Shown piece after piece: positions 41,135 through 59,647 of a DNA stretch of 64,000 nt (the first letter of the stretch is position 1; each line of letters starts with the position of its first letter). A program made the position numbers and the translations under genes. Location of the stretch: positions 1,937-65,936 of the forward strand of contig JAIORB010000133.1 in NCBI GenBank assembly GCA_021108325.1, read 5' to 3'. Source of the stretch: Bacteroidales bacterium (GTDB lineage Bacteria > Bacteroidota > Bacteroidia > Bacteroidales > UBA12077). The notes beneath the pieces are model-generated. The model was not told where the DNA came from. It ran no database searches and worked only from the letters and a program-made list of their open reading frames with translations.

Positions 41135-41171
41135 TTTATTTTATTTTTTAATTAAATTCAATTCCAAATTT

Positions 41172-41283
41172 TTGCCCAAACAATACTTTAGTAATTATCA
41201 GCATGTTTGATAGTTTTTAAAATAATTTGTAGATTCACTACTTAATTAAATAGAAGGAACTTTTTACTTCTATTGACTAGTTA
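41172..41283 (+). repeat. 112-bp direct repeat A, putative attI-like/promoter segment ending at the G|TT crossover (41280)
   Basis: 107/112 identical to 58276-58387; identity stops immediately after ctaGTTA. Confidence 0.75.
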
Positions 41284-41301
41284 GCGGTAAATTTTATTGA
41301 A

Positions 41302-42216
41302 ATGAAAACACTTGAGCAAGAAATACAAAAAGCAACTTCAAAAATTGAAGATAAAAAAAGTATAATTGATAACGAGATTCAAAATCTGAATTCAAAGATA
41401 AATATCTATACTAAGTGGGCGTGGACATTTGTTTGGGTTGGTATTATTGTTACACTTTTTGCAATAATTTTTTATATTTCTGAAAATAATGAGACTGGAT
41501 TTGGTCTCAATTTATTAGGCGATTTTATGGCAGGGACAGTTGCATCTGTTTGGTCACTTGCAGGATTATTTTTTATATATGTAGCATTTTTAGGACAAAA
41601 ACAACAATTGCTTAACCAGCAATTAGAGATTATGTTTAGCCAATTAGAAGTTAAGTATACAAGATTGGAATTAGCAGGACAAAAGGAAGAAATGAAAGAA
41701 CAAAATGCTACTTTAAAACAGCAAAAATTTGAAAATACGTTTTTCCAATTATTGGCAAATCATAATACAATTGTAAATTCTCTTGATTTATCAGGGAGCG
41801 GGAGTCAAAGAGCAATAATAGCAACAGGGAGAGATTGTTTTGTTGTTTTTTACTCACGATTAAATGCAAAATTGCCAGGGGGTGTAACGCTTACTCTAAA
41901 TATGGTAATTAATTCATACTTAGCTTTTTTTAAAGAAAATGTTGCAGATTTAGGACATTATTTTAGAAATCTTTATCATATCATAAAGTTTGTTGACACA
42001 TCGGATATTGAAGACAAAAAGCAATACACAAATTTTGTTAGAGCTCAATTATCTGCTGGAGAATTAATAATCTTATTTTATAACTGCTTATCTGAATATG
42101 GTTTTGAGAAATTCAAGCCACTTATTGAGAAATACTCCTTATTAAAGAATATTGATGATTCATTAATTTTTAATTTGGCGGATAAGGATGTATATGAAAA
42201 AACTGCTTTTCACTAA
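41302..42216 (+). CDS. Putative phage abortive infection protein (putAbiC-like, 2 TM), cassette 1
   Basis: QQKFENTFFQLL, LGHYFRNLYHIIKFVD, YTNFVRAQLS..EL..LFYNCL, FKPLIEKYSLLKNI. Confidence 0.8.
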   Translation: MKTLEQEIQKATSKIEDKKSIIDNEIQNLNSKINIYTKWAWTFVWVGIIVTLFAIIFYISENNETGFGLNLLGDFMAGTVASVWSLAGLFFIYVAFLGQKQQLLNQQLEIMFSQLEVKYTRLELAGQKEEMKEQNATLKQQKFENTFFQLLANHNTIVNSLDLSGSGSQRAIIATGRDCFVVFYSRLNAKLPGGVTLTLNMVINSYLAFFKENVADLGHYFRNLYHIIKFVDTSDIEDKKQYTNFVRAQLSAGELIILFYNCLSEYGFEKFKPLIEKYSLLKNIDDSLIFNLADKDVYEKTAFH

Positions 42217-42223
42217 AATCAAC

Positions 42224-42355
42224 CGCTAACAGCGGGTCAAACTAAAGCTGGGGTTTTGTGGTTTGCATTCTTATTACTATCTTCAACTTTTATTAACGGG
42301 TGATACCGAAACAGGGCGAAAATCCCAGCCTCAGTTTACCCGCGGACCGTTAGGC
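42224..42355 (+). repeat. attC-like site 1 (132 bp)
   Basis: R'' CGCTAAC, R' GTTAGGC. Left arm gcgggt(c)aaactaaagctggg pairs with cccagcctcagtttacccgc, leaving one extra-helical C. Confidence 0.85.
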
Positions 42356-42368
42356 ATAATATTTTTAT

Positions 42369-42986
42369 ATGAAAAAAAGAACTTACATCATCATTTTTAG
42401 TTTACTTGTTTCGATTGTTTCTTGCAATGAACCTGAAGATATTGTTGAAAAAACTGATATTGACACTTTATTTGTTTCAAGTAATTTGAAAAAACATTTT
42501 TATGATATTAATACCACTTGGATATTTGAGTCTAACCAAGGAGAGAAAGATACAGTAACTCTGCTTAGAACTGAAAGAGAAATCTTAGAGCCTCAATCTA
42601 TGCATGGTGAGATACAGCTTGGGTATGTTGAAAATTACAAATTCCATTATTTGAGCACTAGAGATGGATTATATTGGGACCAATATATTGGATATGTTAT
42701 TGTTCGAAATGGTGTTGATTGGGCAAATGGAGAATATATTTATTTATCAAGTTATCAAATTGGCGATAGTTCTGACGAAGCTGAAATAGATACAATTTAT
42801 GACAGTTATAATGTTTCTGATACTACTTATAGAAATGTTGTGAGAATGCGAATTAATAATTTTGAATTCGAATTTGGTGAAAATTGGTATTATTATTTTG
42901 TTGATAGTGTTGGAATAATTAGAAAAGAGAAACTTAACGATGAGCCAAATAATGAAATTTGGAATTTAATCGATAGAAACATATAA
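42369..42986 (+). CDS. Hypothetical lipoprotein, cassette 2
   Basis: Lipobox IVSC; fills the space between attC1 and attC2. Confidence 0.8.
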   Translation: MKKRTYIIIFSLLVSIVSCNEPEDIVEKTDIDTLFVSSNLKKHFYDINTTWIFESNQGEKDTVTLLRTEREILEPQSMHGEIQLGYVENYKFHYLSTRDGLYWDQYIGYVIVRNGVDWANGEYIYLSSYQIGDSSDEAEIDTIYDSYNVSDTTYRNVVRMRINNFEFEFGENWYYYFVDSVGIIRKEKLNDEPNNEIWNLIDRNI

Positions 42987-42995
42987 AAATACAAT

Positions 42996-43128
42996 GCCTA
43001 ACAGCGGGTCAAACTAAAGCCGGGGTTTTGTGGTTTGCATTCTTATTACTATCTTCAAACTTTATTAACGGGTGATACTGAAACAGGGCGGGAAACCCGC
43101 ACAGCTTCAAACCCGCGGACCGTTATAA
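42996..43128 (+). repeat. attC-like site 2 (133 bp)
   Basis: R'' GCCTAAC, R' GTTATAA; left two-thirds nearly identical to attC1. Confidence 0.85.
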
Positions 43129-43469
43129 GTAAGGCGAAAAAAACAATCAGAATTCCGTTAAGTTAATCTCATTTTGATATTGAAATAATTGAATGTAAAA
43201 GTTCACTTTTTGAAAGGGAAGTTTCTTAATTAATAGGTTTTACTCTTATTGATAAAAACAAATTTGCTTGCCATCGCTCTTTTGCCTTACGGCAATTAGG
43301 ATAACCAACCCACACTTAAACACATTTGCTGCGCAAAAGAGCTTAAATTTTGCAATGTCTCATAGTTATATTTAATTCTTTCCCTAAAAAATATTAATTT
43401 AGACATCCTAAAGAAAAATGATAAATGAGTTTACTTCAGTCTTTCGTAGTAAAAAAATACCTGAACTAA

Positions 43470-44696
43470 ATGCCCAAAAAGAAAAAAAAGAAACCTGTAG
43501 TTTCAGCCAAAGTACAACAAGCCCAGAAATTCAATGATTTTAAAAAGCGTTTATTATTAATAGCAAAAGCCTGTGATGCTCTAGAAGAATTTAAGCTACT
43601 CCCCAAACGCGAACTGGAGTTTATGTTTTCTGCTCGATTTAAACCTTTCGATATAATTCCTTCGCAGGGGCAACAATTATCGCCAAAAAATTATAAGGAC
43701 TTAAAGCTACTTGTAAACTATTTTCTTAAAAAGGAAACCATTACATTTTTAGAAAATGGAGAAGAAATAAACTTGTATGAATATTATTATGTAGGCGATT
43801 CTTTACGTTCATGTATCCATGATTTAAAAGATGAAAAATTCAAAGGTGTAACTGAAATTATAAAAGCATTTAAACCATTATCCGACAAACACCTTGCACC
43901 CGATGGCCCACATAACCTTTTATTCGATATATCTAATCTAATGGCTGAATTATTAAGTCGTGTCAATAAAGGTTATTGGCTGTTTCATTATCATCTTATT
44001 AGCAGAAGCGAACCCTTTCCCGAATTTCGTACCTGTTTTAAAGTTGAGTTTGTAGCTCCAGAAATTATTCATATTGTAGAGAATGGTAATAAACGTCCAG
44101 CTTTTCGTGTGGGATGGACAATCTACGGTCAAAAAATAAGTTGGGCACAGATTACACCAAAGCAATTAAATATTAAAAGTGCTTTTAACGATTTAAAAAT
44201 TGATGTATATATACAAAGCCATGCTATAATAAGAATGAAAGAACGTCTCGACTGTATACCTGAAAACTTACATCACAATATCTTATCTCAGAGTATTAGG
44301 CGCTGGGAAACATCTACTAACAATCGTGCTCAAACCTTAATAGCTTATAAATTTGGCGAAACCAAATTAGGATACATGGTATATGAGTATAATCAGGGTG
44401 TTGTTTTAATCAAAACATTTTTGTTACTAACCAATAATGGCACCCCAGAGGGTAAAAAACTTAATAAGTTGCTTGGGCTTGAAAAATCAGATAAGAAATA
44501 TCTCAATATGGATAAACTTAGTCATTTTGTAAAGTCTGACATTCCTAATAACAAAGAACTTTACGCTCATTTTAAAGATGCAGGCTGTGATTGTTTATTC
44601 GAAGTTAACGAAAAGATTGTTAATCAAAACATCAATAAAAATATTCATGCTACATTAATTGAAGAATATATTAATTCGGTTGATAATGAAGAATAG
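43470..44696 (+). CDS. Hypothetical protein (cytoplasmic, Lys-rich N-terminus)
   Basis: 408-aa ORF; conserved-looking motifs VYIQSHAIIRMKERLD and IKTFLLLTNNGTPEG; function not recognised. Confidence 0.75.
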   Translation: MPKKKKKKPVVSAKVQQAQKFNDFKKRLLLIAKACDALEEFKLLPKRELEFMFSARFKPFDIIPSQGQQLSPKNYKDLKLLVNYFLKKETITFLENGEEINLYEYYYVGDSLRSCIHDLKDEKFKGVTEIIKAFKPLSDKHLAPDGPHNLLFDISNLMAELLSRVNKGYWLFHYHLISRSEPFPEFRTCFKVEFVAPEIIHIVENGNKRPAFRVGWTIYGQKISWAQITPKQLNIKSAFNDLKIDVYIQSHAIIRMKERLDCIPENLHHNILSQSIRRWETSTNNRAQTLIAYKFGETKLGYMVYEYNQGVVLIKTFLLLTNNGTPEGKKLNKLLGLEKSDKKYLNMDKLSHFVKSDIPNNKELYAHFKDAGCDCLFEVNEKIVNQNINKNIHATLIEEYINSVDNEE

Positions 44697-44923
44697 TTCT
44701 TATTTTATTTTTACATAAACATAGCCTTTAATTTACCTAACGTATTACCTGTTATTAAACAGGCTTTTTCTTGATTATATCTCACAAACATTTATTAATT
44801 TCGATTTAGAGAATTACTCTAATTAACAATTTATTAACCCATAATCTGAAAAAATATATTATTCGTAATCGATAAAGGCAGTATTGCATTTTCTATTATA
44901 AATTAATTACAATCTAAATTAAA

Positions 44924-45643
44924 ATGATTATGACAAAAAATCGAAATTACAAAGCTAAAGATGTTGATATGTTATTAGCATCAAAGACTATTGTTGAAAC
45001 TTTAAGAATGTACCAGTCAGATTTACTAATGGCTCGTAGTACTTGGACAGAAGAGTATGCAACTATATTAAGTACTAAAATTGATGATGCTATTGAAAAC
45101 CTGTTAGGCTTAGACAAAAAGAAAGAATTGAGAGATACTACAGCTCTTTTAAACTCTATTCAAGATCCAGCAAGACGTAACTTATCTTTCCTCAAAACAC
45201 AAATTGAAGTTGATTTTGGAAAGGACTCAAAAGAAATGATTAAAACATTGGGATTCAATAAATCTTTACGTGCAGTTCATCAAGGAGACCAAGAAGCTTT
45301 AATTGAATTACTTTATAGTTTCAAAAAAGGATTGTCAGAATCACTTAGAGCTAAGATGATAGAAAAAGGTACTAATCCTGAACTAATTGATAGTCTTATT
45401 GAATATGCAGATCAACTAAAACAAGCAAATTTAAGTCAAGAAAGCTTGAAAGAAACAACAAAAGTATTATCTGAAACTGCTATAAACACTTTTAATGAAA
45501 TTTATGCCGAAGTAATCGGAATTTGTAAAATTGCTTCTAGCTTTTTTCAATTTGATCCAATCAAAAAAGAGCAGTTTACTTTTACAAAAATAATAAGGAA
45601 CATGAATTCAGCAAAGAAAGTAGCAGAAACCGTTACAGAATAA
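44924..45643 (+). CDS. Hypothetical alpha-helical protein
   Basis: 239-aa ORF followed by hairpin cttcctcattc-ctcac-gaatgaggagg. Confidence 0.75.
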   Translation: MIMTKNRNYKAKDVDMLLASKTIVETLRMYQSDLLMARSTWTEEYATILSTKIDDAIENLLGLDKKKELRDTTALLNSIQDPARRNLSFLKTQIEVDFGKDSKEMIKTLGFNKSLRAVHQGDQEALIELLYSFKKGLSESLRAKMIEKGTNPELIDSLIEYADQLKQANLSQESLKETTKVLSETAINTFNEIYAEVIGICKIASSFFQFDPIKKEQFTFTKIIRNMNSAKKVAETVTE

Positions 45644-45709
45644 GCACTACAAACACTTCAAACTTCCTCATTCCTCACGAATGAGGAGGTAATTTTATAT
45701 CGATAACAA

Positions 45710-45980
45710 GTCAACACACACCGACAACAGTTCATAGAAGTACGAAGCCAATTCAGCACTGGTAGATGCCAATTCAGCTAAGATAGATAAGAGTTCAGCG
45801 AAAGCGGAAATAAATTCAGCTAAAGTAGAAGCTATTTCAGTGAAAGCGGAAGCTAATTCAGCACAGGTAGATGGAAGTTCAGCTAAGGTAGACAAGAGTT
45901 CAGTACAGGCGGAATTGAATTCAGCTAAGGTAGCTGACAATTCAGCACAGGCGGAAGCTAATTCAGCACTGGTAGATAGA
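45710..45980. repeat. Degenerate 21-bp tandem repeat (~13 units)
   Basis: TTCA recurs at 45731, 45752, 45773 ... 45962, exactly every 21 bp. Confidence 0.85.
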
Positions 45981-46188
45981 AGGACAAAACCCTTTACCAA
46001 TCGCTATTACAAACACTTTGTTAATCCCACACAATCCAAACGCAAAACCAAAGGCTTTACAATAAGTTTGTAATCCTACCCTATTTTGCACTATCGTGCA
46101 ATAAGTATTTCCTCCCTAAAACAAATTTGTTGGTTCTTCGTGGTTAGTTTTTAACAAACTGACAAGTCAGAATATCACAATGCCCAAT

Positions 46189-46321
46189 TTGTAACATTGG
46201 GTCAAATTTAAACTCGGTTTTGGTGGTTTGCAAACGTTTTCCTATCTTCAAACTTTATTAGCGGGGGATAATGAAACAAGGCGAAAAACCCGCACAGCTT
46301 CAAACCCGCGGACCGTTAACG
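46189..46321 (+). repeat. attC-like site 3 (133 bp)
   Basis: R'' TTGTAAC, R' GTTAACG; right arm cccgcacagcttcaaacccgcggaccgtt identical to attC2 and attC5. Confidence 0.8.
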
Positions 46322-46363
46322 GTAATTAATATGCACGATAAAATAAATTTAAACTATAATGAT

Positions 46364-46813
46364 ATGAAACATTCTTTTTTAATCCTATTGACAATTTTTT
46401 TCCTTGTATCTTGTAATTCAACTAAAAAGGTAGGAAGCATTGATTATGGCAGTCCAAATAAGAAACAGGAGTTATTAAATGATTTAACATTTAAAGTAGA
46501 TGCATACAGTAACGACAAAACATACGGTTATACAGAAAAGAATCCTATAATGGTTGGAGGCAATTCCGAAGGACCAAAAAATGAAAGAAGGTTTTTAAAT
46601 GCTTTATCTGGACCAAATGGTGAAAATCTTGAATATTATAGAATTGGGAGTTGTTGTATGTTTACGACAAAAAACGGTAGTTTTGGTGGTAGTGGAATGC
46701 TAGATATGTATAGTATTAATTATCCTGGTCTTGATAAGGACATAACTTTATACATTAACATGTATGACTCAGATACACTAAAAGTACCTGTAGGTTTTAA
46801 ATTGAAAGATTAA
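46364..46813 (+). CDS. Hypothetical lipoprotein, cassette
   Basis: Start ATG 46364 (MKHSFLILL..LVSC); YGYTEKNPIMVGG..GPKNERRFLNALSGPNGE..YYRIGSCC..G.LD.Y. Confidence 0.8.
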   Translation: MKHSFLILLTIFFLVSCNSTKKVGSIDYGSPNKKQELLNDLTFKVDAYSNDKTYGYTEKNPIMVGGNSEGPKNERRFLNALSGPNGENLEYYRIGSCCMFTTKNGSFGGSGMLDMYSINYPGLDKDITLYINMYDSDTLKVPVGFKLKD

Positions 46814-46817
46814 CTGT

Positions 46818-46948
46818 TGCTAACATCGGGTCTTAAAGCATACGGGGTTTTGGTGTTTTGCAAACTTTGTACGATCTTCAACTTTTTCCAACGGGGGATA
46901 GCGAAACAAGGCAAAAATCCCTGTCAAATTTTAAGCTGACCGTTAGGC
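46818..46948 (+). repeat. attC-like site 4 (131 bp)
   Basis: R'' TGCTAAC, R' GTTAGGC; homologous core ggttttggtg..ttgcaaac..atcttcaac..gaaacaaggc. Confidence 0.8.
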
Positions 46949-47000
46949 AACATAAACTCGGCAAAAAATAATCTCCTTCACATTTGGATAGTGTTAAAAA

Positions 47001-47019
47001 AGTACTTATATTTGTACTT
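47001..47019 (+). promoter_or_regulatory. TA cassette promoter (-7 TATATTTG) flanked by GTAC-core operator repeats
   Basis: agtact-tatattt-gtactt; GTAC-core palindromes are the known YefM operator type. Confidence 0.6.
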
Positions 47020-47044
47020 GAATAGATACTTAAAATAATAGATT

Positions 47045-47299
47045 ATGATAGCAGCAAATTACACAGAATTTAGAACTAAGTTGAAGGACTTTCTTGATGC
47101 TGTAGAAGCTAATAATGAGACATTAATTATTAAGCGTGGGACAGGGAAAGGAACAGTAATGATTTCTTTAGATGAATATAATTCAATTATGGAAACTGTT
47201 CATTTATTAAGTTCCAAGACAAATGCTGATAGATTGTATGAATCAATTCGTCAAATGAAAGAAGGAAATATTATTACTGAAAATTTAATTGAAGAATAA
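47045..47299 (+). CDS. yefM: Phd/YefM family antitoxin
   Basis: NYTEFRTKLKDFLD.V...VMISLDEYNSIMETVHLLSS..NA.RL..SI.Q. Confidence 0.93.
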   Translation: MIAANYTEFRTKLKDFLDAVEANNETLIIKRGTGKGTVMISLDEYNSIMETVHLLSSKTNADRLYESIRQMKEGNIITENLIEE

Positions 47300-47559
47300 T
47301 GAGAATAATATTTTCAAAAATCTCTTGGGGAGATTATACTTCATGGTTGCATGAAGATAAAAAAATACTAAAGAAAATTAATGACTTAATAAAAGACATC
47401 CAAAGAAATCCATATGAAGGAAAAGGGAAACCGGAACCTTTAAAATATGATTTATCTGGATATTGGTCTCGCCGAATAGATAGAGAACATAGATTGGTAT
47501 ATCAGGTTGATGAAAACGAAATTCGAATTTATAGTTGTAAATATCATTATGACAAGTAG
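47299..47559 (+). CDS. yoeB: Txe/YoeB family toxin
   Basis: KINDLIKDIQRNPYEGKGKPEPLKYDLSGYWSRRIDREHRLVY..CKYHY; 1-bp overlap with yefM. Confidence 0.95.
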   Translation: MRIIFSKISWGDYTSWLHEDKKILKKINDLIKDIQRNPYEGKGKPEPLKYDLSGYWSRRIDREHRLVYQVDENEIRIYSCKYHYDK

Positions 47560-47569
47560 TATTTATGTT

Positions 47570-47739
47570 GCCTAACACGCAATCAAAGTACATACGGTCC
47601 CGATAATTATCGGGATTGGTGGTATTTTGACAACCTGCTTGCCAGCAGGCAAGTTTTTGTTATCTTTAACTTTCGGTAACGGTGGACACTGAAACAAAGC
47701 GAAAATCCCGCACAGCTTCAAACCCGCGGACCGTTAAAA
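47570..47739 (+). repeat. attC-like site 5 (170 bp, lengthened by two mini-palindrome insertions)
   Basis: R'' GCCTAAC, R' GTTAAAA; inserts tcccgataattatcggga (47598-47615) and cctgcttgccagcaggcaag (47634-47653). Confidence 0.8.
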
Positions 47740-47892
47740 GCAACGGTATGACATACAAAAAAAAATAATTTTGACACATCTTGATAGTTTCTCGACTGAC
47801 AAGAACAAAAAATAAAAGTGGAGACCAGCGACCACTCAAAAAAACGGGGCAAGATCGAAAAGCCAAATGAGTAGAAATTATATTTAAATTTA

Positions 47893-48522
47893 ATGACTAT
47901 GTTTATTAAAAGGAATTTTCTCTGGATTATATTTTTTGGTTCATTGATTGGATTAAATGAAACACTTATTGGTAGCTTTAATATACCCTACCGCTCAGTT
48001 ATTTTAAGCTCAATAACTTTAACAATATTATCACTTGCTCGACTAAAAATTCCAAAAACTGGAACATCAATTTTAATTATGTTAGTTGCTATTCTTTTCA
48101 AAATAAATAGTTTTGGAGTTCATTCATGTACAACTAATATGCTTTTATGTGGACCAACAGCACTTCTTTTACTTGGAATAGCTTATGAAATATTTGCATC
48201 TTTATTTATTTCAAAAAACACATTCAAATATTTAAACTATGTATTGACCTGTAGTGTAACTTCCTTCGTAGCCTTCAGTTTTTTTGCAGTAATGAATACT
48301 TACATCATTAGCGTTTGGGATACGTCCAGACTATTTGAGTATATCTTTGTCAGAGCGACATTAACAGCTGTTTTATCAAGTGCTATTAGTATATTTGGAT
48401 TATACTTAGTAAGAACTTTTGAAAAAGAGCATTTTTTAAGACTTAATCCGTTTGTTATTAATAGTATATTAGGCTGCGTGATTATTGCACTTTGGTTGTT
48501 TGGGTCTTATGTGAAATTTTAG
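47893..48522 (+). CDS. Hypothetical multi-pass membrane protein, cassette
   Basis: 209 aa, about 6 hydrophobic segments; bounded by attC5 and attC6. Confidence 0.75.
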   Translation: MTMFIKRNFLWIIFFGSLIGLNETLIGSFNIPYRSVILSSITLTILSLARLKIPKTGTSILIMLVAILFKINSFGVHSCTTNMLLCGPTALLLLGIAYEIFASLFISKNTFKYLNYVLTCSVTSFVAFSFFAVMNTYIISVWDTSRLFEYIFVRATLTAVLSSAISIFGLYLVRTFEKEHFLRLNPFVINSILGCVIIALWLFGSYVKF

Positions 48523-48609
48523 AGACAATATAACTTTTTATTATTGGAATGCTCTTTAAATAATAGATTGAAAGTTTATTAAAACAAAACCTGAGTAAAA
48601 CTAAACCAG

Positions 48610-48745
48610 CCCATAACAGCGGGTCTTAAAGCATGCGGGATTTTGGTAGGATTTTGACAACCTGCTTGCCAGCAGGCAAGTTCTTGTTATCTTTAACTTT
48701 CGGTAACGGGGTCCCAATAGTTATGGGATGAAACAGGGCGAAAAA
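48610..48745 (+). repeat. attC-like site 6 (truncated; right arm and R' missing)
   Basis: CCATAAC agcgggtcttaaagc... is homologous to attC4/5 up to gaaacagggcgaaaa, then no ggaccGTT follows. Confidence 0.7.
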
Positions 48746-48854
48746 ATGAAATTAGGGAAATCTTATCTCACTTTGCAAACATAGGAGCTTAAATTTTGCC
48801 TTCTCTTCACTTATCGGTTTTGGAAAAAATCATTGTATCCTACTGATTTTACTT

Positions 48855-49964
48855 TTAAGAAATCTGTGGTATTGTGAAAATGAATTTACTACCTTTCTTA
48901 ACTTCACTTTCAACCCAAATTTTCCCACCGTGTTTTTCAACAAACTCTTTACACAATATTAAGCCTAAGCCTGTTCCTGCTTCTTCTTCGGTTCCTTTGG
49001 TTGAAATGTTTTCTGTTATTTTAAATAATTTGCTTTGTATTTCGGGTGGAATTCCCACTCCGCTATCTTTTACAGATATTTCTGCAAATTTTTGATTATT
49101 ATTATCTGTTATTGTATGTGATTTTATAGTAATATCGCCTCCTTTGGGTGTAAACTTTATTGCATTCGATATTAAATTTCGTATTACTGTATCTATCATA
49201 TTTTTATCGGCATTCACAAACAAGCTGTTGTCTGTATTTGCTATTAGTTTTATTTCCTTATTTTCAGCAGTTTCTGTCAATAATAAAATTATTTCATTTA
49301 TTAATGTTTCGATATTGATTTTTTCTGGTGTGAATTCAATTCGCCCTGATTGAGATTGTGCCCATGTAAGCAAATTTTCTAGTAATTTGAAAGTTTTTAT
49401 TGAACCATCATTAATAAACTTGATATATGTTTCACGCTCTTCATCATCAATTGTTGCATGACTTTCTAATAAGAGATTCGAAAAACCCAACAATGCAGTG
49501 AAAGGGCTTTTTAAGTCGTGTGCAATTATCGAGAAAAATTTGTCTTTTGTTGCATTTAAAAGTTTAATTTCTTTATAACTTTCTGATAATTTTAACATGG
49601 AATATACTCTTGCCGATAATTCAGTTTTATCTATTGGTTTTCGTATATAGTCAACAGCTCCTGCTTCTAAGGCTGTTTTCAAATGTTCAGATGTTGTCAT
49701 TTTTCCGGTACACATGATAACAGGAATATCGGCTGTTGTTTCGAAGCGTTTTAAACATTTTAAAGTTTCAATACCATCCATTTCAGGCATTTCCCAATCC
49801 AGAATTATTAAATCAGGAAGTTTTTTTTCTGCAAGCGTACATGCAATTTTTCCGTTTGGAGCTTTAAGAATTGTTAAGGATAATTCTGTTTCCTTCAAAA
49901 AACTTGAAATGGTTTTCAAGTTGTCCTGACTATCGTCAACTACCAGTATTGAATAATTTTCCAT
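48855..49964 (-). CDS. Hybrid response regulator-histidine kinase (REC-HisKA-HATPase)
   Basis: ILVVDD, PDLIILDWEMPEMDG, DYIRKP; FSIIAHDLKSP; RNLISNAIKFT, DSGVGI, GTGLGL. Confidence 0.93.
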   Translation of the reverse strand: MENYSILVVDDSQDNLKTISSFLKETELSLTILKAPNGKIACTLAEKKLPDLIILDWEMPEMDGIETLKCLKRFETTADIPVIMCTGKMTTSEHLKTALEAGAVDYIRKPIDKTELSARVYSMLKLSESYKEIKLLNATKDKFFSIIAHDLKSPFTALLGFSNLLLESHATIDDEERETYIKFINDGSIKTFKLLENLLTWAQSQSGRIEFTPEKINIETLINEIILLLTETAENKEIKLIANTDNSLFVNADKNMIDTVIRNLISNAIKFTPKGGDITIKSHTITDNNNQKFAEISVKDSGVGIPPEIQSKLFKITENISTKGTEEEAGTGLGLILCKEFVEKHGGKIWVESEVKKGSKFIFTIPQIS

Positions 49965-49991
49965 AGTAAAAAATTTATTATCAGTTATATT

Positions 49992-52900
49992 TTAATCAAT
50001 TAAATGAATCAGCTTTTTATACTTTTCTTCATTTAAGGCATCAATGGCATTAACTATTTCTGCTTTCCACTTTTGTAAATTTTCAGTTTTGCTGCAATCT
50101 AATTGTTCTATTATTTTTTCAACTTCTGTTGATTCATATACTTCCAGTTCTTGTAGTTTCAATAAAAATGGTTTTAGAATTTCTTTCTCAGTTGATGTTA
50201 ACTCAATAGCTTTTTCTTCTATTACTTCTTCTTCGATAGTTATTTCTTCATCTCCCTGATAGCCTAATGGTAAAGTAAACCAGAAAATACTACCCTCGTT
50301 TTCTTCTGATTCTACATTTATTTCACCTCCGTGAGCTTCTACGAATAATTTACAAAAAGTAAGTCCAATACCTGTTGATCTTCCCAATCCTGATTTTCTG
50401 GCTATTACTTGTTCAAATTTACCAAAAACTGTATGTAATTTTTCTTTTGGTATTCCTTGTCCGGTATCCGTTACTTTAATCCGAATAAAATCAGGTGAGT
50501 ATTCTTCAGAATCAAGCGTAATAGTTCCATTATTGGGAGTGTATTTTATTGCATTTGTGAGTAAATTAATAAAAACCCGTTCGATTATTTCAGGGTCGAT
50601 ATCAACATAATAATTTTGAATGCGATTTATTAATTTAATACTTTTTTGGTGGTAAAGTAAATCAACTTGCGACAGCGCTAATTTTGATAATTCGTATATA
50701 GAAGTATTTGATGTTTGTATTTTTATTTCGGTATTTTCGAATTTATTAACATCCAGAATATTCATTATCATATTTAGCATTTGCTTACCCGATTGTTTTA
50801 CAATATCGCTTTCTGCTAAACCGATAATTGCATTAAGCGGGTTTTTTAAATCGTGAATTATCATTCCTGTTAATTCTTCTTTAAATTGGTCTAACTCTAT
50901 GAGTTTATCGTTTGCTGTTTGTAGTTCTTCTGCCTGTGAAGATATTTCTTCTTTTTGTAGTTCAATACAATGGAATGCATCTGCATTTTCAAGGGCTATA
51001 GATGTGTAAACAGCTATATTTTTCAGAATGTTTAAATGATAATCAGTAAATGCATTTATTTTTGGATTTTGTATTGTAATTACACCTATTTTTTTTGTGG
51101 TTGTAAGGGGTAAATATATTAAAGACTCATGAATCGCATTTTTTTTGTAAAACAATTTATCAGAAACATATTTTTTATATTCTTTTGAATAATTGTTTAA
51201 AAGAATTTCTTTTTGATTTTCAAAACACCAGACCGATAAAAGGTTTTTATTTTCTAATAAGTCTGAACTTTTAAGTATATCTCCATCCAGCCTTTCAAGA
51301 CCAAAAAAGTCTATGCTTTCTTTCTCAGGATTATGAATACCGATAGAAAATATTGGTGTTTCTATTAAATCATTAACATTTTCATACGTTGTTTTTAAAA
51401 TCTTCTCAACTGACAAATTTGCAATTATCTGCTGGCCTATTTGGCTCAACAACTGAACATTGTGATATGATTTTATTATTTTTTCTTTTTGTTGTTCCAA
51501 TTTTATACTTTTTTCTTCAATATCATCCTTCTGCGTTAAAATTTCATTAGTTCTTTCTTTTACTTTTTCTTCTAAGTATTCTTTTTCCTTTATCAAATTC
51601 TTTTCTCTGATCTTTATATAAAGTGCTATTAATAAAATAATTGTTATTATTATTATAGTAATAAACCACCAAGATTTATAGAAGGGCGGTATAATCTTTA
51701 TTTTAAGTTCCGTTGAAGTTTCATTCCAGACTTTATCGTTGTTACTTCCTTTTACTTTAAAAGTATATGTGCCTGGATTAAGATTTGTAAATGTTGCTGA
51801 CTTCATATTCTGAACATCAATCCAATCCTCATCTAAGCCTTCCAGCATATATTTATATTGATTTTGTTTAGGAGATGTATAATCTAAAGCGGCAAACTCA
51901 ATAGTAAAGAAATAGTCCTTTTTTGTTAATACAATTTGTTTATAATTAGCATTAAAATACAGATATGGAGAAACATAGCTATCCCAAACAGATTTATTAA
52001 GAATTTTAAAATCAGTAATATTAACCTTAGGAAGATAAGGGTTGCCTATTACTTCAAGTGGATTAAAATACGTTAATGCCTGATTACTCCCGAAGTACAT
52101 TATTCCGTCATCAGATTTAAAAACGGCATTTCTGGAAAACCCGCTACTCTCAATTCCTTCAATAAAAGTATAGTTAATTAGTTTGTTGTCTCCAGCTGAA
52201 TATTTTGATAAACTTCTGGATGTACTTATCCACAAATTACCTAAATCATCTTCAAGTATCCCAACTATCATATTACTTAGAAGCTCATTATTTTTCGGAT
52301 GAGCAACAAAGTTCATATTATTATAATCGAATTTAATTAATCCATTTGATTCAGTTCCAATCCAGAGATTTTCATTAAGATCTTCAAATAATATAGAAAC
52401 ATGAATATCTCTTTTAAATACAGAGTCTTTAATTTTTGAAGGATTATAATTAATAAATTCACCAGTATCAGGCTTAAATAGGAATAGTCCACCTGCATAT
52501 GATCCAACCCATAAGCGTCCATTACTGTCTAAAAAAATATCACTTATATAATTGTCAATAAATTGTTGCGATTTTTTTGTGTTATGATAGTATTTTTCGA
52601 ATATATAATCATTAGGAGTACCCTTTTTTACTAATTTATTCAATCCATATGCCGTCGCTATCCATATTGTTCCGGCTTCATCCTCGATTATCGTATTAAT
52701 AATATTATTGCTTATGCTTGAATCATTATTTTCTGTAGGCAAATATCTGGTGAAATTATATGTACCATTCCTATATTCAATTCTATTTAAGCCTCCCATG
52801 TACGTTCCTACCCAAATTATTCCATTTTTATCTACTAATACAGACCATACTCTATTTGCACTTAGTGAATTATTATCTATTGGATTTTGTTTAAAATGAT

Positions 52901-54104
52901 TAAAGTTCTTTGTTATTGGATTATATTTTGATAGTCCACCACCATCAGTACCAATCCATAAATTGCCTTTTTCGTCGCTATCAATCGCCATAACTGCTGG
53001 ATGAGGTAATGAGTTCTTATCTTTCGGGTTATGTATAATATTAAAGAATTTCTGTGGTTTTAAATCTAAAATATTTAAACCACCTCCACGAGTTGCAATC
53101 CATAAATTACGGGATGCGTCTTCAAACAAATATTCAACCCTATTATGACTAATACTTTCCGAATTTCCCAGGTCATGCTTAAAATGAGTAAATCTTTCTG
53201 TTTTTGGATCAAATCTATTTAAACCACGAGAATATGTTCCAATCCAAAAAATACCATATGAATCTCTTAAAATATATTCAACATTATTATCGCTAATACT
53301 GTTTAGATCATTCGCATTATGTTTATAATGTTTAAAAGTTTCTGTTTTTGGATCAAACTTACTAATTCCTGTTTCCTTGTATGAAATCCAAATTGTTCCA
53401 TCATCATCTGCAAAAAGGTGTTGAATACTATTAGAACTTGGACTATTTAAATTATTTGGATCATGTAAATAACAGGTAAAGTTATTATTGTCTTTATTGA
53501 ATTTGTTTAATCCATTTCCAGTTCCAATCCATAAAGTTGTATCTTTTGTTTCGCATATGCATTTAGCTCTTATACTACTATGACTACTCGGGTCATTTAA
53601 ATCTGGTTTGTAAACTGTAAACTTTTCGCTATCTCTGTTGAATTTATTCAATCCTCCATTAGCTGTTCCAACCCAAATATGATTATAGCTATCTTCAAAT
53701 ACAAACATTATTTGATTATTACTTAAACCATGCTGATGAGAGAAGTTTGTAAATGTATTTGTTTTTGGATCGAATCGATCAAGACCACCACCAAAGGTTC
53801 CAAACCAGAAAATTCCAGAACGGTCTTGATATATTTTCCCAAAATTTCCAGTTGAAAGGGAATTTGTATCGTTAATATCATGCCTGTATATGGTAATTTT
53901 ACTACCATCGTATTTGTTTAATCCATCTTGTGTACCAAACCAAAGATATCCAGATTTATCTTGAATAATTGTATATACATTATTGTGAGAAAGACCATCT
54001 TTTATTGAAAGTTTTCTAAACTTATATTCGGGATTTTGGGCTTTAACAATGAACAATGAACAATGAACAAGGAATAAGGCAAGTAACAGGCTTATTTTTT
54101 TCAT
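49992..54104 (-). CDS. Sensor histidine kinase: beta-propeller + Y_Y_Y + TM + GAF + HisKA + HATPase
   Basis: GLSHNNV..IIQDKSGYLWFGTQDGLNKYDG repeats; YKYMLEGLD; IPPFYKSWW; IIHDLKNPL; NLLTNAIKYT; STGIGL. Start ATG 54104. Confidence 0.92.
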   Translation of the reverse strand: MKKISLLLALFLVHCSLFIVKAQNPEYKFRKLSIKDGLSHNNVYTIIQDKSGYLWFGTQDGLNKYDGSKITIYRHDINDTNSLSTGNFGKIYQDRSGIFWFGTFGGGLDRFDPKTNTFTNFSHQHGLSNNQIMFVFEDSYNHIWVGTANGGLNKFNRDSEKFTVYKPDLNDPSSHSSIRAKCICETKDTTLWIGTGNGLNKFNKDNNNFTCYLHDPNNLNSPSSNSIQHLFADDDGTIWISYKETGISKFDPKTETFKHYKHNANDLNSISDNNVEYILRDSYGIFWIGTYSRGLNRFDPKTERFTHFKHDLGNSESISHNRVEYLFEDASRNLWIATRGGGLNILDLKPQKFFNIIHNPKDKNSLPHPAVMAIDSDEKGNLWIGTDGGGLSKYNPITKNFNHFKQNPIDNNSLSANRVWSVLVDKNGIIWVGTYMGGLNRIEYRNGTYNFTRYLPTENNDSSISNNIINTIIEDEAGTIWIATAYGLNKLVKKGTPNDYIFEKYYHNTKKSQQFIDNYISDIFLDSNGRLWVGSYAGGLFLFKPDTGEFINYNPSKIKDSVFKRDIHVSILFEDLNENLWIGTESNGLIKFDYNNMNFVAHPKNNELLSNMIVGILEDDLGNLWISTSRSLSKYSAGDNKLINYTFIEGIESSGFSRNAVFKSDDGIMYFGSNQALTYFNPLEVIGNPYLPKVNITDFKILNKSVWDSYVSPYLYFNANYKQIVLTKKDYFFTIEFAALDYTSPKQNQYKYMLEGLDEDWIDVQNMKSATFTNLNPGTYTFKVKGSNNDKVWNETSTELKIKIIPPFYKSWWFITIIIITIILLIALYIKIREKNLIKEKEYLEEKVKERTNEILTQKDDIEEKSIKLEQQKEKIIKSYHNVQLLSQIGQQIIANLSVEKILKTTYENVNDLIETPIFSIGIHNPEKESIDFFGLERLDGDILKSSDLLENKNLLSVWCFENQKEILLNNYSKEYKKYVSDKLFYKKNAIHESLIYLPLTTTKKIGVITIQNPKINAFTDYHLNILKNIAVYTSIALENADAFHCIELQKEEISSQAEELQTANDKLIELDQFKEELTGMIIHDLKNPLNAIIGLAESDIVKQSGKQMLNMIMNILDVNKFENTEIKIQTSNTSIYELSKLALSQVDLLYHQKSIKLINRIQNYYVDIDPEIIERVFINLLTNAIKYTPNNGTITLDSEEYSPDFIRIKVTDTGQGIPKEKLHTVFGKFEQVIARKSGLGRSTGIGLTFCKLFVEAHGGEINVESEENEGSIFWFTLPLGYQGDEEITIEEEVIEEKAIELTSTEKEILKPFLLKLQELEVYESTEVEKIIEQLDCSKTENLQKWKAEIVNAIDALNEEKYKKLIHLID

Positions 54105-54335
54105 TTTCAGGCAATACATTATCAAGATACTCTTTGGTCGCATCATTCTTCCAATTAAATAGACAAAAAGCCCTCTCGATAAAATGGTATAGTTCGACTA
54201 AATTACTGACAATTAAGTTAAAAGTCAATTTATTTGTTTAATATTTTCAGCATTTTAAAAAACAAACTTATTAACTTAGTTCTTAGAAAAGTTGTTTTCG
54301 ATTCCCACAGAAAGAGATTTTCTTATCATTTATAT

Positions 54336-57300
54336 CTAATCAATTAAATGAATCAATTTTTTATACTTTTCTTCATTTAAGGCATCAATGGCATTAACTA
54401 TTTCTGCTTTCCACTTTTGTAAATTTTCAGTTTTGCTGCAATCTAATTGTTCTATTATTTTTTCAACTTCTGTTGATTCATATACTTCCAGTTCTTGTAG
54501 TTTCAATAAAAATGGTTTTAGAATTTCTTTCTCAGTTGATGTTAACTCAATAGCTTTTTCTTCTATTACTTCTTCTTCGATTTTTATTTCTTCGTTTCCC
54601 TGCCTACCTGCCGGTAAGGTAAACCAGAAAGTACTGCCTTCATTCTCCTCTGATTCTACATTGATTTCTCCTCCGTGAGCTTCTACGAATAATTTACAAA
54701 AAGTGAGTCCGATACCCGTTGATCTTCCCAATCCTGATTTTCTGGCTATTACTTGTTCGAACTTACCGAAAACTGTATGTAATTTTTCTTTTGGTATTCC
54801 CTGTCCGGTATCTCTTACTTTAATCCGAATAAAATCAGGTGAGTATTCTTCTGATTCAAGTGTAATGGTTCCATTATTGGGAGTGTATTTTATTGCATTT
54901 GTGAGTAAATTAATAAAAACCCGTTCGATTATTTCAGGGTCGATATCAACATAATAATTTTGAATGCGATTTATTAATTTAATACTTTTTTGGTGGTAAA
55001 GTAAATCAACTTGCGACAGCGCTATTTTTGATAATTCGTGTACAGAAGTATTTGATGTTTGTATTTTTATTTCAGTATTTTCGAATTTATTAACATCCAG
55101 AATATTCATGATCATGTTTAGCATTTGCTTACCCGATTGTTTTACAATATCGTTCTCAGACAAACCAATAATTGCATTCAAGGGGTTTTTTAAATCGTGA
55201 ATAATCATGGTTGTTAATTCTTCTTTATATTTGTCTAATTCCAATAGTTTATCGTTTACAGCTTGTAGTTCCTCAGATTGTGAAAATATTTCTTCTTTTT
55301 GTAGTTCAATACAATTGAAAGCTTCTGCATTTTCCAATGCTATTGATGTGTAAACAGCTATATTTTTCAGAATGTTTAAATGATAATCTGTAAAAGCATT
55401 TTTTTGTGGATTTTGTATTGTAATTACACCTATTTTTTTTCCTTTGGTTGTAAGGGGTAGATATATTAAAGACTCATGAATCGCATTTTTTTTGTAAAAC
55501 AATTTATCAGAAACATATTTTTTATATTCTTTTGAATAATTGTTTAATAGAATCTCTTTTTGATTTTTAAAACACCATACTGATAAAAGGTTTTTATTTT
55601 CTAATAAATCAGAACTTTTAAGTATATCTCCATCCAGCCTTTCAATACCAAAAAAGTCTAAGCATTTTTTCTCAGGATTATGAATACCGATAGAAAATAT
55701 TGGTGTTTCCATTAAGTTACTTACATTTTTATAAGTTGTAATTATAATTTTTTCTACCGATAAATTTGCAATTATTTGTTGTCCTATTTGGCTCAATAAC
55801 TGAACATTTTGATATGATTTTTCGATTTCCTGTTTTTTAGTTTCTATTGCTGCTTCAGCTTTTTTTGATTCAGTAATATCTGAATCAATTGCAATTAGTT
55901 TTGATAATGTACCTTTATCATTAATAATTGGAGTAATAGTTGTTTGCATCCATATATTTTCATTTGATTCTTTTGTGAATAAAAATTCATAGTTTACTGT
56001 AATTTTTTCACTAATACATGTAGCTAACTTTTTGTTAATTTCAAGATCTTTGGAACATTCTAAAATGTTTTTACCTCTTTTTACAATAAATTCATCAAAT
56101 GTTAAATCATACATTCGTGTAAATCCTTCATTTATCCATTCAAAATTACCTTGAGCATCCATAATACTCACTGCATTGTCAGTTTTACTAGCAACTATTG
56201 ATAGTTTTTCGAGTTCGTGATTTGTATTTTCAAGTTGTTCTGCCTGGGTCTGAACTTCTTCATTCATACTTTGCAGTTCAGCGTTTATTTCTTCAATTTC
56301 TTCCTTTTGTGCCGAAAGAATGCGGTTTGCTTTACGTTTTTGTATAAAACTGCGAAGCACAACAAGAATAAGCATAAGCATTAATACAAAACCTGCAATA
56401 AAGGAATTACGTACAATTTTTTGCCGTTTTACTTCTTCTGCGTGCACAGCATCTTTTTTTTGTTGTTCTAATTCAGCTGCCTGTTTTTCTTTTTCGTATT
56501 CCAGGCCTGTTGTTTTTTTGATGTTTTCTTCGTTAAAAATGTTGTCGCTCATTTGTTTGAATAGTTTAAAATATTCAAGCGATTTTTTGTATTGCCCGGC
56601 TTGTTCATATACAGTTGCCAAACCTTCGGCTGCATCTTTCAGATTGAGAGGATTATCAATTTCATCTGCAATTTTATAGCCTCGCAACAAATATTCTTTG
56701 GCTTTTTCATATTGCTTTGTTTTTATATATAAGTTTCCTATACTGTTACATGATTGTGCAATTTCTTTACTTTCATTAATACTTTCACGTTTTTTAAGGC
56801 CTTTTAAAAAATACTCAAGGGCTTCTTCGTATTTTTGCTGCTTCATAAAAACAATTCCTTTACCGTTATATGCCCATCCTAGTACATGAGTGAAGTTAAT
56901 TTCTTCGCCTATGCTTATGCACCGGTCGTAATAATCAAGTGCCTGATCTAATTTATTTTGTTTTTCATATATTAAAGCTATATTATTTAATTCATTTGAA
57001 ATGCCCGATTTTTGTTTCAGTTCACTATAAATTTTCAAAGATTTTTGATAGTATTCAAGAGCTTTATTGTAATACTGCATTTCATAAAATATTACTCCGA
57101 AATAGTTAAAACAAACTGCAATCCCTCTTTTATCTCCTAATTCCTCTTTTATTTTTAATGATTTTTGATAGCATTCAAGGGATTTGAGATAATTGCCTTG
57201 TTCTTTGTATGTATATCCAATTTCTGCCAAACATACTGAAATTCCGCTTTTATCTCCGATTTCTTCCCTTATTTTCAATGATTTTTTAATATATTCCAAT

Positions 57301-58088
57301 GCTTTGGAATAATCACCCTGTAATTTGTAAATTACTCCAATACTATTGTAACAATTTGCAATTCCGATTTTATCGCCGATCTCCTCTTTAATTTTTAGTG
57401 ATTTTTGGTAGTATTTCAAGGCCGTTGGATAATCACCTTGTGTACTGTAAATTCCTCCAATATTATTGTAAGACCGTGTAATTCCGATTTTATCGCTTAA
57501 TTCTTCTTTGATAACTAATGATTTTTGGTAGTATTCTAAAGCTTTATGATAATCGCCACGTTTTTTGTAAATTGCTCCAATATTATTGTAGCACTTTGCA
57601 ATCCCAATTTTATCACCTAATTCATCCATGATTCTCAACGATTTTTGGTAGTATCCCATAGCATTAGGATAATCACATCGAACATGATAAATTACTCCAA
57701 TACTTTTGTAACAATTTGCAATTCCGATTTTATCGCCGATCTCCTCATTAATTATTAAAGCCTTTTGGAAACATTCCAATGATTTGGAGTAATCGGATTT
57801 TTTGCCGTAATAAGCACCCGTTAATAGCAAACTTTCAGCTTTACCTTTCGGGAAATTCAAATCATCGGCTAGCTTACCAGCCTTCTCAGAATATTGCAGG
57901 GTTTTATCATTATCAATTATATATAATTTATCGGCAACTTTGTTTAAAAGATTTACCCTAACGATATCCTTTTCTGGGTGTTGCGCCAACAGGTTTTCGA
58001 GGCTGTCAATTTCAGGGTTTTGGGCATTAACAATGAATAAAGAACAAGGAACAATGAATAGTGCTAAAAATAGGTATATTTTTTTCAT
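54336..58088 (-). CDS. Sensor histidine kinase: TPR array + TM + PAS + GAF + HisKA + HATPase
   Basis: 40-aa TPR repeats (GDKIGIA.CYNNIG.IY...GDY.KALEYYQKSL.I.EE); PAS (SIVASKTDNAVSI..WINEGF); C-terminus near-identical to 49992-54104. Start ATG 58088. Confidence 0.92.
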   Translation of the reverse strand: MKKIYLFLALFIVPCSLFIVNAQNPEIDSLENLLAQHPEKDIVRVNLLNKVADKLYIIDNDKTLQYSEKAGKLADDLNFPKGKAESLLLTGAYYGKKSDYSKSLECFQKALIINEEIGDKIGIANCYKSIGVIYHVRCDYPNAMGYYQKSLRIMDELGDKIGIAKCYNNIGAIYKKRGDYHKALEYYQKSLVIKEELSDKIGITRSYNNIGGIYSTQGDYPTALKYYQKSLKIKEEIGDKIGIANCYNSIGVIYKLQGDYSKALEYIKKSLKIREEIGDKSGISVCLAEIGYTYKEQGNYLKSLECYQKSLKIKEELGDKRGIAVCFNYFGVIFYEMQYYNKALEYYQKSLKIYSELKQKSGISNELNNIALIYEKQNKLDQALDYYDRCISIGEEINFTHVLGWAYNGKGIVFMKQQKYEEALEYFLKGLKKRESINESKEIAQSCNSIGNLYIKTKQYEKAKEYLLRGYKIADEIDNPLNLKDAAEGLATVYEQAGQYKKSLEYFKLFKQMSDNIFNEENIKKTTGLEYEKEKQAAELEQQKKDAVHAEEVKRQKIVRNSFIAGFVLMLMLILVVLRSFIQKRKANRILSAQKEEIEEINAELQSMNEEVQTQAEQLENTNHELEKLSIVASKTDNAVSIMDAQGNFEWINEGFTRMYDLTFDEFIVKRGKNILECSKDLEINKKLATCISEKITVNYEFLFTKESNENIWMQTTITPIINDKGTLSKLIAIDSDITESKKAEAAIETKKQEIEKSYQNVQLLSQIGQQIIANLSVEKIIITTYKNVSNLMETPIFSIGIHNPEKKCLDFFGIERLDGDILKSSDLLENKNLLSVWCFKNQKEILLNNYSKEYKKYVSDKLFYKKNAIHESLIYLPLTTKGKKIGVITIQNPQKNAFTDYHLNILKNIAVYTSIALENAEAFNCIELQKEEIFSQSEELQAVNDKLLELDKYKEELTTMIIHDLKNPLNAIIGLSENDIVKQSGKQMLNMIMNILDVNKFENTEIKIQTSNTSVHELSKIALSQVDLLYHQKSIKLINRIQNYYVDIDPEIIERVFINLLTNAIKYTPNNGTITLESEEYSPDFIRIKVRDTGQGIPKEKLHTVFGKFEQVIARKSGLGRSTGIGLTFCKLFVEAHGGEINVESEENEGSTFWFTLPAGRQGNEEIKIEEEVIEEKAIELTSTEKEILKPFLLKLQELEVYESTEVEKIIEQLDCSKTENLQKWKAEIVNAIDALNEEKYKKLIHLID
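57001..57800 (-). repeat. 120-bp-period tandem repeats encoding TPR units
   Basis: attccgattttatc-like motif at 57121, 57241, 57361, 57481, 57601, 57721. Confidence 0.8.
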
Positions 58089-58275
58089 ATTCAGGGATTT
58101 TGAACTGCTTAATGTACAACTATTTAATGAAAACATCAAACAAAATGATTGTTTATTCTTATTTACCAGTGCTTTATGGTACTAATTCCAAAACCCTATT
58201 ACAAACACATTGGCAAGCCTGCTTGGTCAGCAGATAAATGTCTTTCGCTTTTTTTGTTTATCAAATCCAAAATTA

Positions 58276-58387
58276 TTGCCCAAACAATACTTTAGTAATT
58301 ATCAGCATGTTTGATAGTTATTAAAATAATTTGTAGATTCACTACTTAATTGAATAGAAGGAGCTTTTTGCTTCTATTTACTAGTTA
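58276..58387 (+). repeat. 112-bp direct repeat B (attI-like), ending at G|TTAATC (58384)
   Basis: Five mismatches versus 41172-41283. Confidence 0.75.
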
Positions 58388-59642: not shown

Positions 59643-59647
59643 CATTA

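Follow-up and report, generated by a model that had tools for sequence, protein, structure and literature searches.

A multi-copy element at the junction with gene cassettes in a sediment Bacteroidales genome, a probable docking site of the attI type

The integron is usually pictured as a single platform with an integrase gene, one attI site and one promoter, and clusters of attC sites that lack an integrase (CALINs) are taken for debris or for chance insertions at secondary sites. The locus described here raises the question of what a cassette array starts from when no recombinase gene stands at its head. It lies in a 64,000-nt stretch of DNA (hereafter the window; contig JAIORB010000133.1 of assembly GCA_021108325.1, positions 1,937 to 65,936) from a sediment Bacteroidales genome (G000; own assembly of 3.70 Mb in 160 contigs), in which an element of 110-150 nt occurs in two co-oriented copies and an array of cassettes with attC recombination sites follows directly behind the first of them. 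In this study, it was found that the element belongs to a family whose right-hand end is an exact cassette junction and that cassettes turn over at this junction between species and between samples. Moreover, no recombinase gene stands beside any copy, and in relatives of the bacterium a recombinase gene heads attC arrays. The reading that we favor, and hold to be reasonably probable, is that the element is an orphan, multi-copy docking site resembling attI, probably furnished with an outward promoter and served in trans by a Xer-like recombinase.

Copies of the element and their right-hand end

The segments 41172-41283 and 58276-58387 were identical at 107 of 112 positions in an ungapped comparison, the figure given in the initial annotation, with mismatches at 41216, 41248, 41259, 41266 and 41275, and the match was far above chance (BLAST E = 3.6e-49 in the 3.7-Mb genome). 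Fainter homology reaches about 40 nt further to the left (repeat family D10, 173 nt, 83%). The copies, both on the forward strand, are delimited here as 41129-41280 for copy A, with the conserved core at 41172-41280 and the G of the crossover as last base, and as 58233-58384 for copy B, with the core at 58276-58384. On the right, the identity of the two copies collapses immediately after ACTAGTTA, both stopping at CTAG|TTA, which places the crossover between G 41280 and T 41281 in copy A and between G 58384 and T 58385 in copy B. The end of homology at this motif had been recognized in the initial annotation and was upheld, but the crossover lies three bases inside the ends first assigned to the two segments.

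The repeat had been described as present in several copies on the strength of these two. A BLAST search with 41150-41300 against the bacterium's own assembly (E <= 1.5e-10) returned six, the others being copy C on contig C129, copy D on contig C19 and, on contig C105, the full copy E with the partial copy F 3.65 kb downstream of it. A covariance model of the element, applied to 37 genomes of the genus, matched 16 times in 6 of them, two of these matches being to weak, divergent copies; among 41 sampled relatives BLAST located the element in 6, which all belong to the same genus. The strict pattern TTCACTACNTAATTRAATWGAAGG was found at four loci in a species-level genome collection and in no stretch of the metagenome contigs searched, and no copy was found in the closed genome G008. 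Furthermore, Rfam gave no match to the element at gathering threshold over the whole window, and a search of 41100-41330 at E <= 10 gave two rows of chance level. The element family is thus young and restricted to this lineage.

Full-length copies were examined at 11 loci, namely A to E in G000, the orthologues of A, D and E in the relative G047, and one locus each in G005 (contig C33), G016 (contig C186) and G002 (locus A); records of identical DNA (L034/L063, L037/L066 and L028/L035) were each tallied once. Homology stops at G|TT in all 11, the joint reading CTAG|TTA, GTAG|TTA, ATAG|TTG, ATTG|TTA, CTGG|TTA or GTTG|TTA. At four of these loci the bases after G|TT recur in reverse complement (8-9 of 9) at the R'' end of the next attC: CCGCTAAC at +942 nt from copy A, TGTGTAAC at +799 from copy C, AATGCTAAC at +1823 from the G047 orthologue of locus A, and ACCCGTAAC at the G047 orthologue of locus E. 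Behind copy A, CCGCTAAC at 42223-42230 is the exact reverse complement of GTTAGCGG at the junction 41280, and this complementarity identifies the G|TT of the element (41280..41281, forward strand) as a true cassette boundary. That cassette 1 starts at this G|TT, as the initial annotation had it, is thereby confirmed. As to whether copies always end at GTT before cassettes, the rule held for the end of every full-length copy, but a cassette validated by its attC followed at only four of the 11, and the truncated copy F ends in TAG|ATG.

The repeats behind copy A have the anatomy of attC sites. There are six of them, about 130-170 nt long, from 42223 to about 48740, starting with ..CTAAC or ..TAAC and ending with GACCG|TTA; the bottom strand of attC 1 folds end to end, with unexceptional fold energies (z = -1.75 and -0.13). 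Cassettes 1, 2 and 5 each open with 8-10 nt that recur, exactly reverse-complemented, where their own attC begins; in cassettes 3, 4 and 6 the match between the opening bases and their own R'' is imperfect or missing. When five attCs of the window were combined into a profile, it identified 25 sites on 13 contigs (E <= 8.6e-6, among the 30 matches listed), which indicates that the genome holds many arrays, mostly broken by the assembly.

Turnover of cassettes and the recombinase of the system

Locus A is orthologous in three species (G000, G002 and G047). Up to 41215, G002 matches the window with 92-95% identity across the genes for an ABC transporter and a FISUMP-domain protein. G047 has the ABC-permease flank with 89% identity but no FISUMP gene, and a gap of 98 nt separates the permease gene from the element. 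The first cassettes behind the element differ, beginning with TTAGCGG... (putAbiC) in G000, with TTAGCC... (a different protein) in G002 and with TTAGCATT... in G047. G000 and G047 also have loci D and E in orthologous positions, again with different DNA past the crossover. At the place that matches locus B, where synteny differs, G047 has no element. The element of G002 is moreover split: after ...CAGCGTGATTACTAG a cassette of 1.3 kb starts with G|TTATGCCC, its truncated attC opens with GGGCATAAC (9/9 complement of the cassette start), and the right half of the element resumes at AGTTTTTAAAAT. The split copy points to a second usable TAG|TT inside the element, which corresponds in the window to 41210..41216 on the forward strand (G 41213 | T 41214); a history of deletion or duplication is the alternative.

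Turnover between samples was followed in the Logan contigs, not the reads, of four other runs, which were compared with 39500-49500. In a contig of run X3 (record 12, 773 nt), the first 72 nt are the element up to 41279 and the rest continues from 46942, the two parts sharing five letters (GTTAG); this contig is the element joined directly to cassette 5 at the crossover. In runs X3 and X4, the left flank (39500-41169) had a depth of about 7-10, cassettes 5-6 of about 10-24 and cassette 1 (41504-42171) of 0, a pattern consistent with what a new insertion at a docking site, or a deletion between the site and an attC, would leave. The uncovered parts of runs X3-X5 were given no weight beyond this contrast in depth between flank and cassettes, and attC-attC joints with sides of 23-38 nt were ignored as possible repeat artefacts.

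Three tyrosine recombinases (PF00589) were found in the genome, in searches covering all contigs but C144 (2202 nt, N throughout). Two look like XerC/D, and the third is a protein of 374 aa encoded at 206-1330 of contig C48. The C48 protein passes the model NF040815 ('site-specific tyrosine recombinase/integron integrase') with 226 bits against a cut-off of 220 and fails the integron-integrase model TIGR02249 with 209 bits against 265. Its alignment is split, about 15 residues standing in place of model positions 180-238, the IntI-specific region, and it has about 97 extra residues at the N-terminus. Since its recombinase is without the IntI-specific insertion, the system is not a canonical integron. 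TIGR02249 gave no match at E <= 1e-40 in the 37 genomes of the genus, a result without a positive control, as the control genomes were also silent.

Orthologues of the C48 recombinase were present in 22 of the 37 genomes (E <= 1e-60), often a few hundred bases from a contig end. In the closed genome G008 the orthologue lies at 1,398,551-1,399,666 and is followed by co-oriented attCs (22 profile matches in 40 kb); 39 of 40 scored BLAST matches to an attC fall within 1,401,738-1,504,032, an array of about 102 kb. In G024 the orthologue is likewise located directly 5' of a co-oriented attC array. The 170 nt downstream of the recombinase gene are conserved in G000, G047, G045, G008 and G017 and end in AACTAG|TTA, after which the sequences diverge; this recombinase-proximal site is the attI that belongs to the system. 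This genome lacks a second recombinase family, which shares about 40% identity with the C48 protein and whose sites end in AAAC(A/T)AG|TT(A/G), each after inverted repeats. With both families as tblastn queries, and with the PF00589 profile, no tyrosine-recombinase gene or remnant was found near any of the six copies; nor does a recombinase adjoin the element at the 16 model matches in the 37 genomes, where the flanks were inspected. The claim of the initial annotation that the element is uncoupled from an integrase is thus substantiated.

The element and the recombinase-proximal site are alike in layout, both having an inverted repeat, a spacer of 5-7 nt and CTAG|TTA, and a TAGAnGGAAC block lies equally far from the crossover in the two. 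As a separate observation, TTACTATCTTCAA, a conserved block in the middle of the attCs (e.g. 42275-42295), also occurs just 5' of the start codon of the C48 recombinase gene (L021, about 1345-1370); the recurrence may be coincidental or may reflect a regulatory or binding box common to both.

The docking-site reading and its rivals

In the mechanism proposed here, a single Xer-like cassette recombinase, the C48 protein of 374 aa with an extra N-terminal domain and no IntI insertion, would act in trans and would join the folded attC of a circular cassette to the element at (C)TAG|TTA. Each new cassette would thereby be placed immediately after the element, in the same orientation, and be transcribed from it, with the older cassettes displaced distally. 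We infer that a recombinase of the C48 type acts on the element, and that the element is specifically recognized rather than a tolerated site. Dispersal of arrays to recombinase-less heads is general in this genome, and the element is the most frequently used type of head: two of the four orphan heads that could be delimited fall in copies of the element, among 2333 TAGTTA sites in the genome, for which the rough post-hoc chance is about 1e-5. A wider proposal, that of a 'distributed integron' in which one Xer-like recombinase serves several promoter-bearing docking elements, with parallel capture and expression, multiplication of the element itself and two crossover points, is tentative and falls somewhat short of an even chance.

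Within the element, an inverted repeat, AATAGAAG-N10-CTTCTATT, occupies 41249..41274 on the forward strand, six bases ahead of the crossover, and its arms are paired in 92.9% of cells over 14 copies. The initial annotation had listed TATCA/TGATA as a further inverted repeat; both repeats exist, but the latter is weakly conserved across copies. A candidate outward promoter, TTGATA-N17-TAGATT at 41207..41235 on the forward strand, agrees with the sigma-70 consensus at 9/12 positions; copy B holds the same pair at 58311-58339, and the alignment has it kept in most full copies. Bacteroidetes-type promoter boxes are TTTG / TAnnTTTG, and inspection of the element by eye gave a partial match to them with the wrong spacing. 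The first start codon follows 20-30 nt downstream of the element at most copies and about 70 nt downstream at copy B, and several copies come after a hairpin-plus-T-run sequence of the upstream gene. From these features the element probably carries an outward promoter, as had been suggested at the outset. The pair of boxes is a candidate, however: the match is weak, sigma-70 matches of this kind are common by chance, and no RNA run was found that contains the element sequence.

Several results weigh against a dedicated docking site with a promoter. First, a profile of five recombinase-proximal sites retrieved no copy of the element from the genome, returning the C48 site alone, with a next match at E = 0.9 that is not the element, and the sole sequence match between element and recombinase-proximal site was a BLAST alignment of 36 nt (E = 0.009); the resemblance is therefore one of layout and not significant homology. 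Second, seven of the 11 full-length loci yielded no attC of this family in the downstream DNA searched, which amounted to 5.7 kb at copy B, 6.9 kb at E, 1.46 kb to the contig end at D, 2-2.7 kb at locus D of G047, about 1.5 kb in G016, 184 nt in G005 and 684 nt at the second junction of G002. A search for a complementary R'' after B, D, E and locus D of G047 gave nothing convincing, the 7-mers at B +2956 and at +897 of G047 locus D being core DNA or lacking R'. Third, two other array heads, on contigs C64 and C100, are without the element, which means that cassettes can land elsewhere. Fourth, covariation in the AATAGAAG/CTTCTATT hairpin amounted to one compensatory change among the 14 copies, not above shuffles, and 2.5-3.5 promoter matches of the kind found are expected by chance per 600 nt of such AT-rich DNA; the search of RNA runs was negative, as said above. 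Fifth, copy F, which is truncated, ends in TAG|ATG, as do its orthologues in G047 and G002, before a conserved gene of 141 aa and a DEAD-box helicase gene, a context that fits an ordinary promoter or leader role of the right half of the element. Finally, the 72 nt at the X3 joint may derive from a different element copy, present in another strain. The attI-like insertion site of the initial annotation is accordingly sustained in one respect, the exact, recurrent junction at which cassettes turn over, but not in others, as the similarity to the recombinase's own site is not significant and no attC could be recognized behind copies B, D and E.

The main rival holds that the element is a repeated promoter or 5' leader, behind which cassettes landed opportunistically, in the manner of attG sites, and were kept because they were expressed, without any specific recognition. 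We regard this as possible but rather unlikely. A precedent is described by Loot et al. (bioRxiv 10.1101/2022.09.11.507474): IntI1 places cassettes at a large number of genomic GWT sites, and those that are expressed are located close to resident promoters. The context of copy F before a conserved core gene, the C64 and C100 heads and the missing similarity to the recombinase-proximal site all agree with this rival. A plain duplication of promoters does not, however, predict an end at G|TT in 11 of 11 full-length loci, those without an attC included. A further argument against this rival is that one and the same nucleotide is used by three species and in another sample, and yet another that, of the four orphan heads, two lie within a six-copy element, among so many TAGTTA sites.

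It is improbable that each copy is instead the relic attI of a complete platform that has lost its recombinase. Loss of the integrase is the usual explanation of CALINs, and the C64 head resembles the attI of the second recombinase family, which this genome lacks; but tblastn with both families found no remnant near the copies, no recombinase adjoins the model matches whose flanks were inspected in the 37 genomes, and upstream of the copies stand ordinary genes (ABC transporter, FISUMP-domain protein) conserved between species.

Still less probable is an unusual attC, forming the 3' end of a non-coding or an upstream cassette. Homology among attC copies also ends at G|TT, an ATGTAAC in G016 about 110 nt upstream complements the GTTACAT after the element, and in C105 and in G002 the right-hand module of the element comes after inserted genes. 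Against this, the other copies have no R'' (..AAC) at the left end and their left flanks are core genes. The element, moreover, gave no match to the attC profile and no end-to-end fold, only three local hairpins, in agreement with the initial view that it is not attC-like.

The alternative offered with that view, direct repeats bounding a 17.1-kb island or a segmental duplication, is hardly credible: copies A and B are co-oriented and 17,104 nt apart, and the interval is largely strain-specific, G047 having only kinase paralogues of 72% identity and no element at locus B, but the six copies lie on four contigs, copies A, D and E stand at orthologous loci in G047, the interval consists of a 7.4-kb attC array and three opposite-strand sensor-kinase genes with no mobility gene, and a clean one-copy deletion was seen in no relative among the fragmented assemblies.

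Array contents, other heads and relation to known systems

The array behind copy A runs on the forward strand, and its cargo comprises a putAbiC-domain protein, a Phd/YoeB pair, an open reading frame (ORF) led by a DUF805 RNA and several ORFs without a Pfam match. Cassette 1 (41281..42349) encodes the putAbiC-domain protein at 41302-42216, with its attC at 42223-42349. Cassette 2 (42350..43122) holds an ORF of 205 aa without a Pfam match and an attC at 42994-43122, the R'' of which, ATGCCTAAC, complements the cassette start. Cassette 3, which may be composite, spans 43123..46315, with ORFs at 43470-44696 and 44924-45643 and an attC at 46188-46315 whose R'' match is imperfect; it includes an array of 21-nt tandem repeats (45731-45982, family D2) that runs antisense to the cassette genes (minus-strand ORF 45695-46000). 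Cassette 4 (46316..46942) has a small ORF and an attC at 46816-46942, and cassette 5 (46943..47733) a Phd/YefM-YoeB toxin-antitoxin pair at 47045-47559 and an attC at 47567-47733, with a 10/10 complement of the R''. Cassette 6 (47734..48740) carries an ORF at 47893-48522 and closes the array with a truncated attC, from 48609 to about 48740, that has no R'. A DUF805 RNA motif (RF03081, 77 bits, gathering score 51) lies within cassette 6 at 47813-47881, just 5' of this ORF, which has no Pfam match; a structured cis-regulatory RNA thus travels inside a mobile cassette.

Past the truncated last attC are three sensor-kinase genes on the opposite strand. Two large hybrid sensor kinases on the minus strand, at 49992-54146 and 54336-58139, have a Reg_prop/Y_Y_Y sensor in one case and a TPR sensor in the other, and their C-terminal halves have 300-nt blocks in common with 93-95% identity (D3, D5), which suggests recent gene conversion or partial duplication. 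Copy B is followed by two co-oriented genes, 58458-58910 for a small membrane protein and 59001-59642 for a PA14-domain protein, for which no match was found in G047, G002 or G005. The initial annotation had both copies precede runs of accessory genes; co-oriented genes do follow both, but cassettes were identified behind copy A only, no attC of this family having been found behind copy B. Beyond these genes lie two repeats of about 100-120 nt (59644-59764 and 59816-59935), the first a long imperfect palindrome; dozens of copies with 84-99% identity occur in the genome (contigs C20, C6, C80, C11 and C3), and others in G002, G016, G019, G020, G045, G047 and G048. They look like repetitive extragenic palindromic (REP) sequences or miniature inverted-repeat transposable elements (MITEs).

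Elsewhere in the genome, a PIN protein encoded after copy D has a sub-threshold match to Imm41 (E = 0.0068), the sole match to an immunity family. On contig C105 (L083, 2851-7034), the 3.65 kb between the co-oriented copies E and F contain genes for a 710-aa protein without a family match, an HTH-Panacea (SocA-like) protein of antitoxin type and a protein of 114 aa; copy F lies directly 5' of the gene for the conserved 141-aa protein, a membrane protein, which is followed by the helicase gene. The orphan head on C64, at about 19,499-19,533 (L086), reads ...AAAAACTAG|TTAGGGCT and that on C100 ...AAAAGTAG|TTATAACC, and each has a 9-mer complement at the next attC. Both look like the core of the attI of the second recombinase family, and tblastn with both families found no recombinase remnant near the C64 head.

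Compared with the known attI sites, attI1 of class 1 integrons and attIA of the Vibrio cholerae chromosomal integron, which stand at the head of their arrays with a G|TT crossover and a promoter nearby, the element is alike in its position at the 5' head of a co-oriented array, in its G|TT crossover, in having the newest cassettes adjoining and in its presumed promoter. Recurrent insertion at G|TT was observed in the junctions, in three species and in the X3 joint. Unlike attI, the element lies far from the recombinase gene, occurs in six copies, shows no sequence similarity to such sites and appears to contain a second usable TAG|TT; none of its copies adjoins an integrase gene. The arrays have attC sites with R''/R' and single-strand folding, six of them in the window, and cassette starts that complement their own attC R'' exactly in cassettes 1, 2 and 5. 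An IntI-family integrase with its additional domain was not found, the best candidate being the C48 protein, which is without the IntI-specific insertion.

In the account of Loot et al. (bioRxiv 10.1101/2022.09.11.507474), diverse GWT sites of the genome (attG) serve IntI1 as targets for cassette insertion, which is proposed as an origin of small CALINs and of single attC sites lacking an integrase (SALINs), with expressed cassettes near resident promoters. The arrays described here share with those the occurrence of cassettes and short attC clusters away from an integrase, at GTT or GWT, and expression via a resident promoter. As attG sites are portrayed there, they are diverse and unconserved; the element, in contrast, is a conserved multi-copy family of 110-150 nt with one and the same insertion nucleotide across several loci, species and samples; the chemistry at the element may nevertheless be attG-like. 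A further system of the Bacteroidales is rAID-1, clusters of which are reported from more than half of Bacteroidales genomes (Ross et al., bioRxiv 10.1101/471110). A XerD-family recombinase with a co-oriented array and repetitive intergenic sequences, as in rAID-1, is present in G008 and G024. By the description of rAID-1 in that source, its clusters are recombinase-linked, carry orphan immunity genes and are described without orphan heads; unlike them, the element heads orphan arrays without an adjoining recombinase, and the cargo here consists of toxin-antitoxin, Abi-like and unknown genes rather than of recognized immunity genes. No report of multi-copy or orphan attI-like elements was found in open-access texts.

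In conclusion, if the element is a docking site, dispersed cassette arrays may be a designed feature, and the picture of the integron as a single platform would change. Exchange and expression of cassettes at a distance from the recombinase would then have an explanation. The docking site would further provide a concrete test sequence for the Xer-like cassette recombinases of Bacteroidota, enzymes that escape the standard integron finders, and a marker for hidden arrays in metagenomes.

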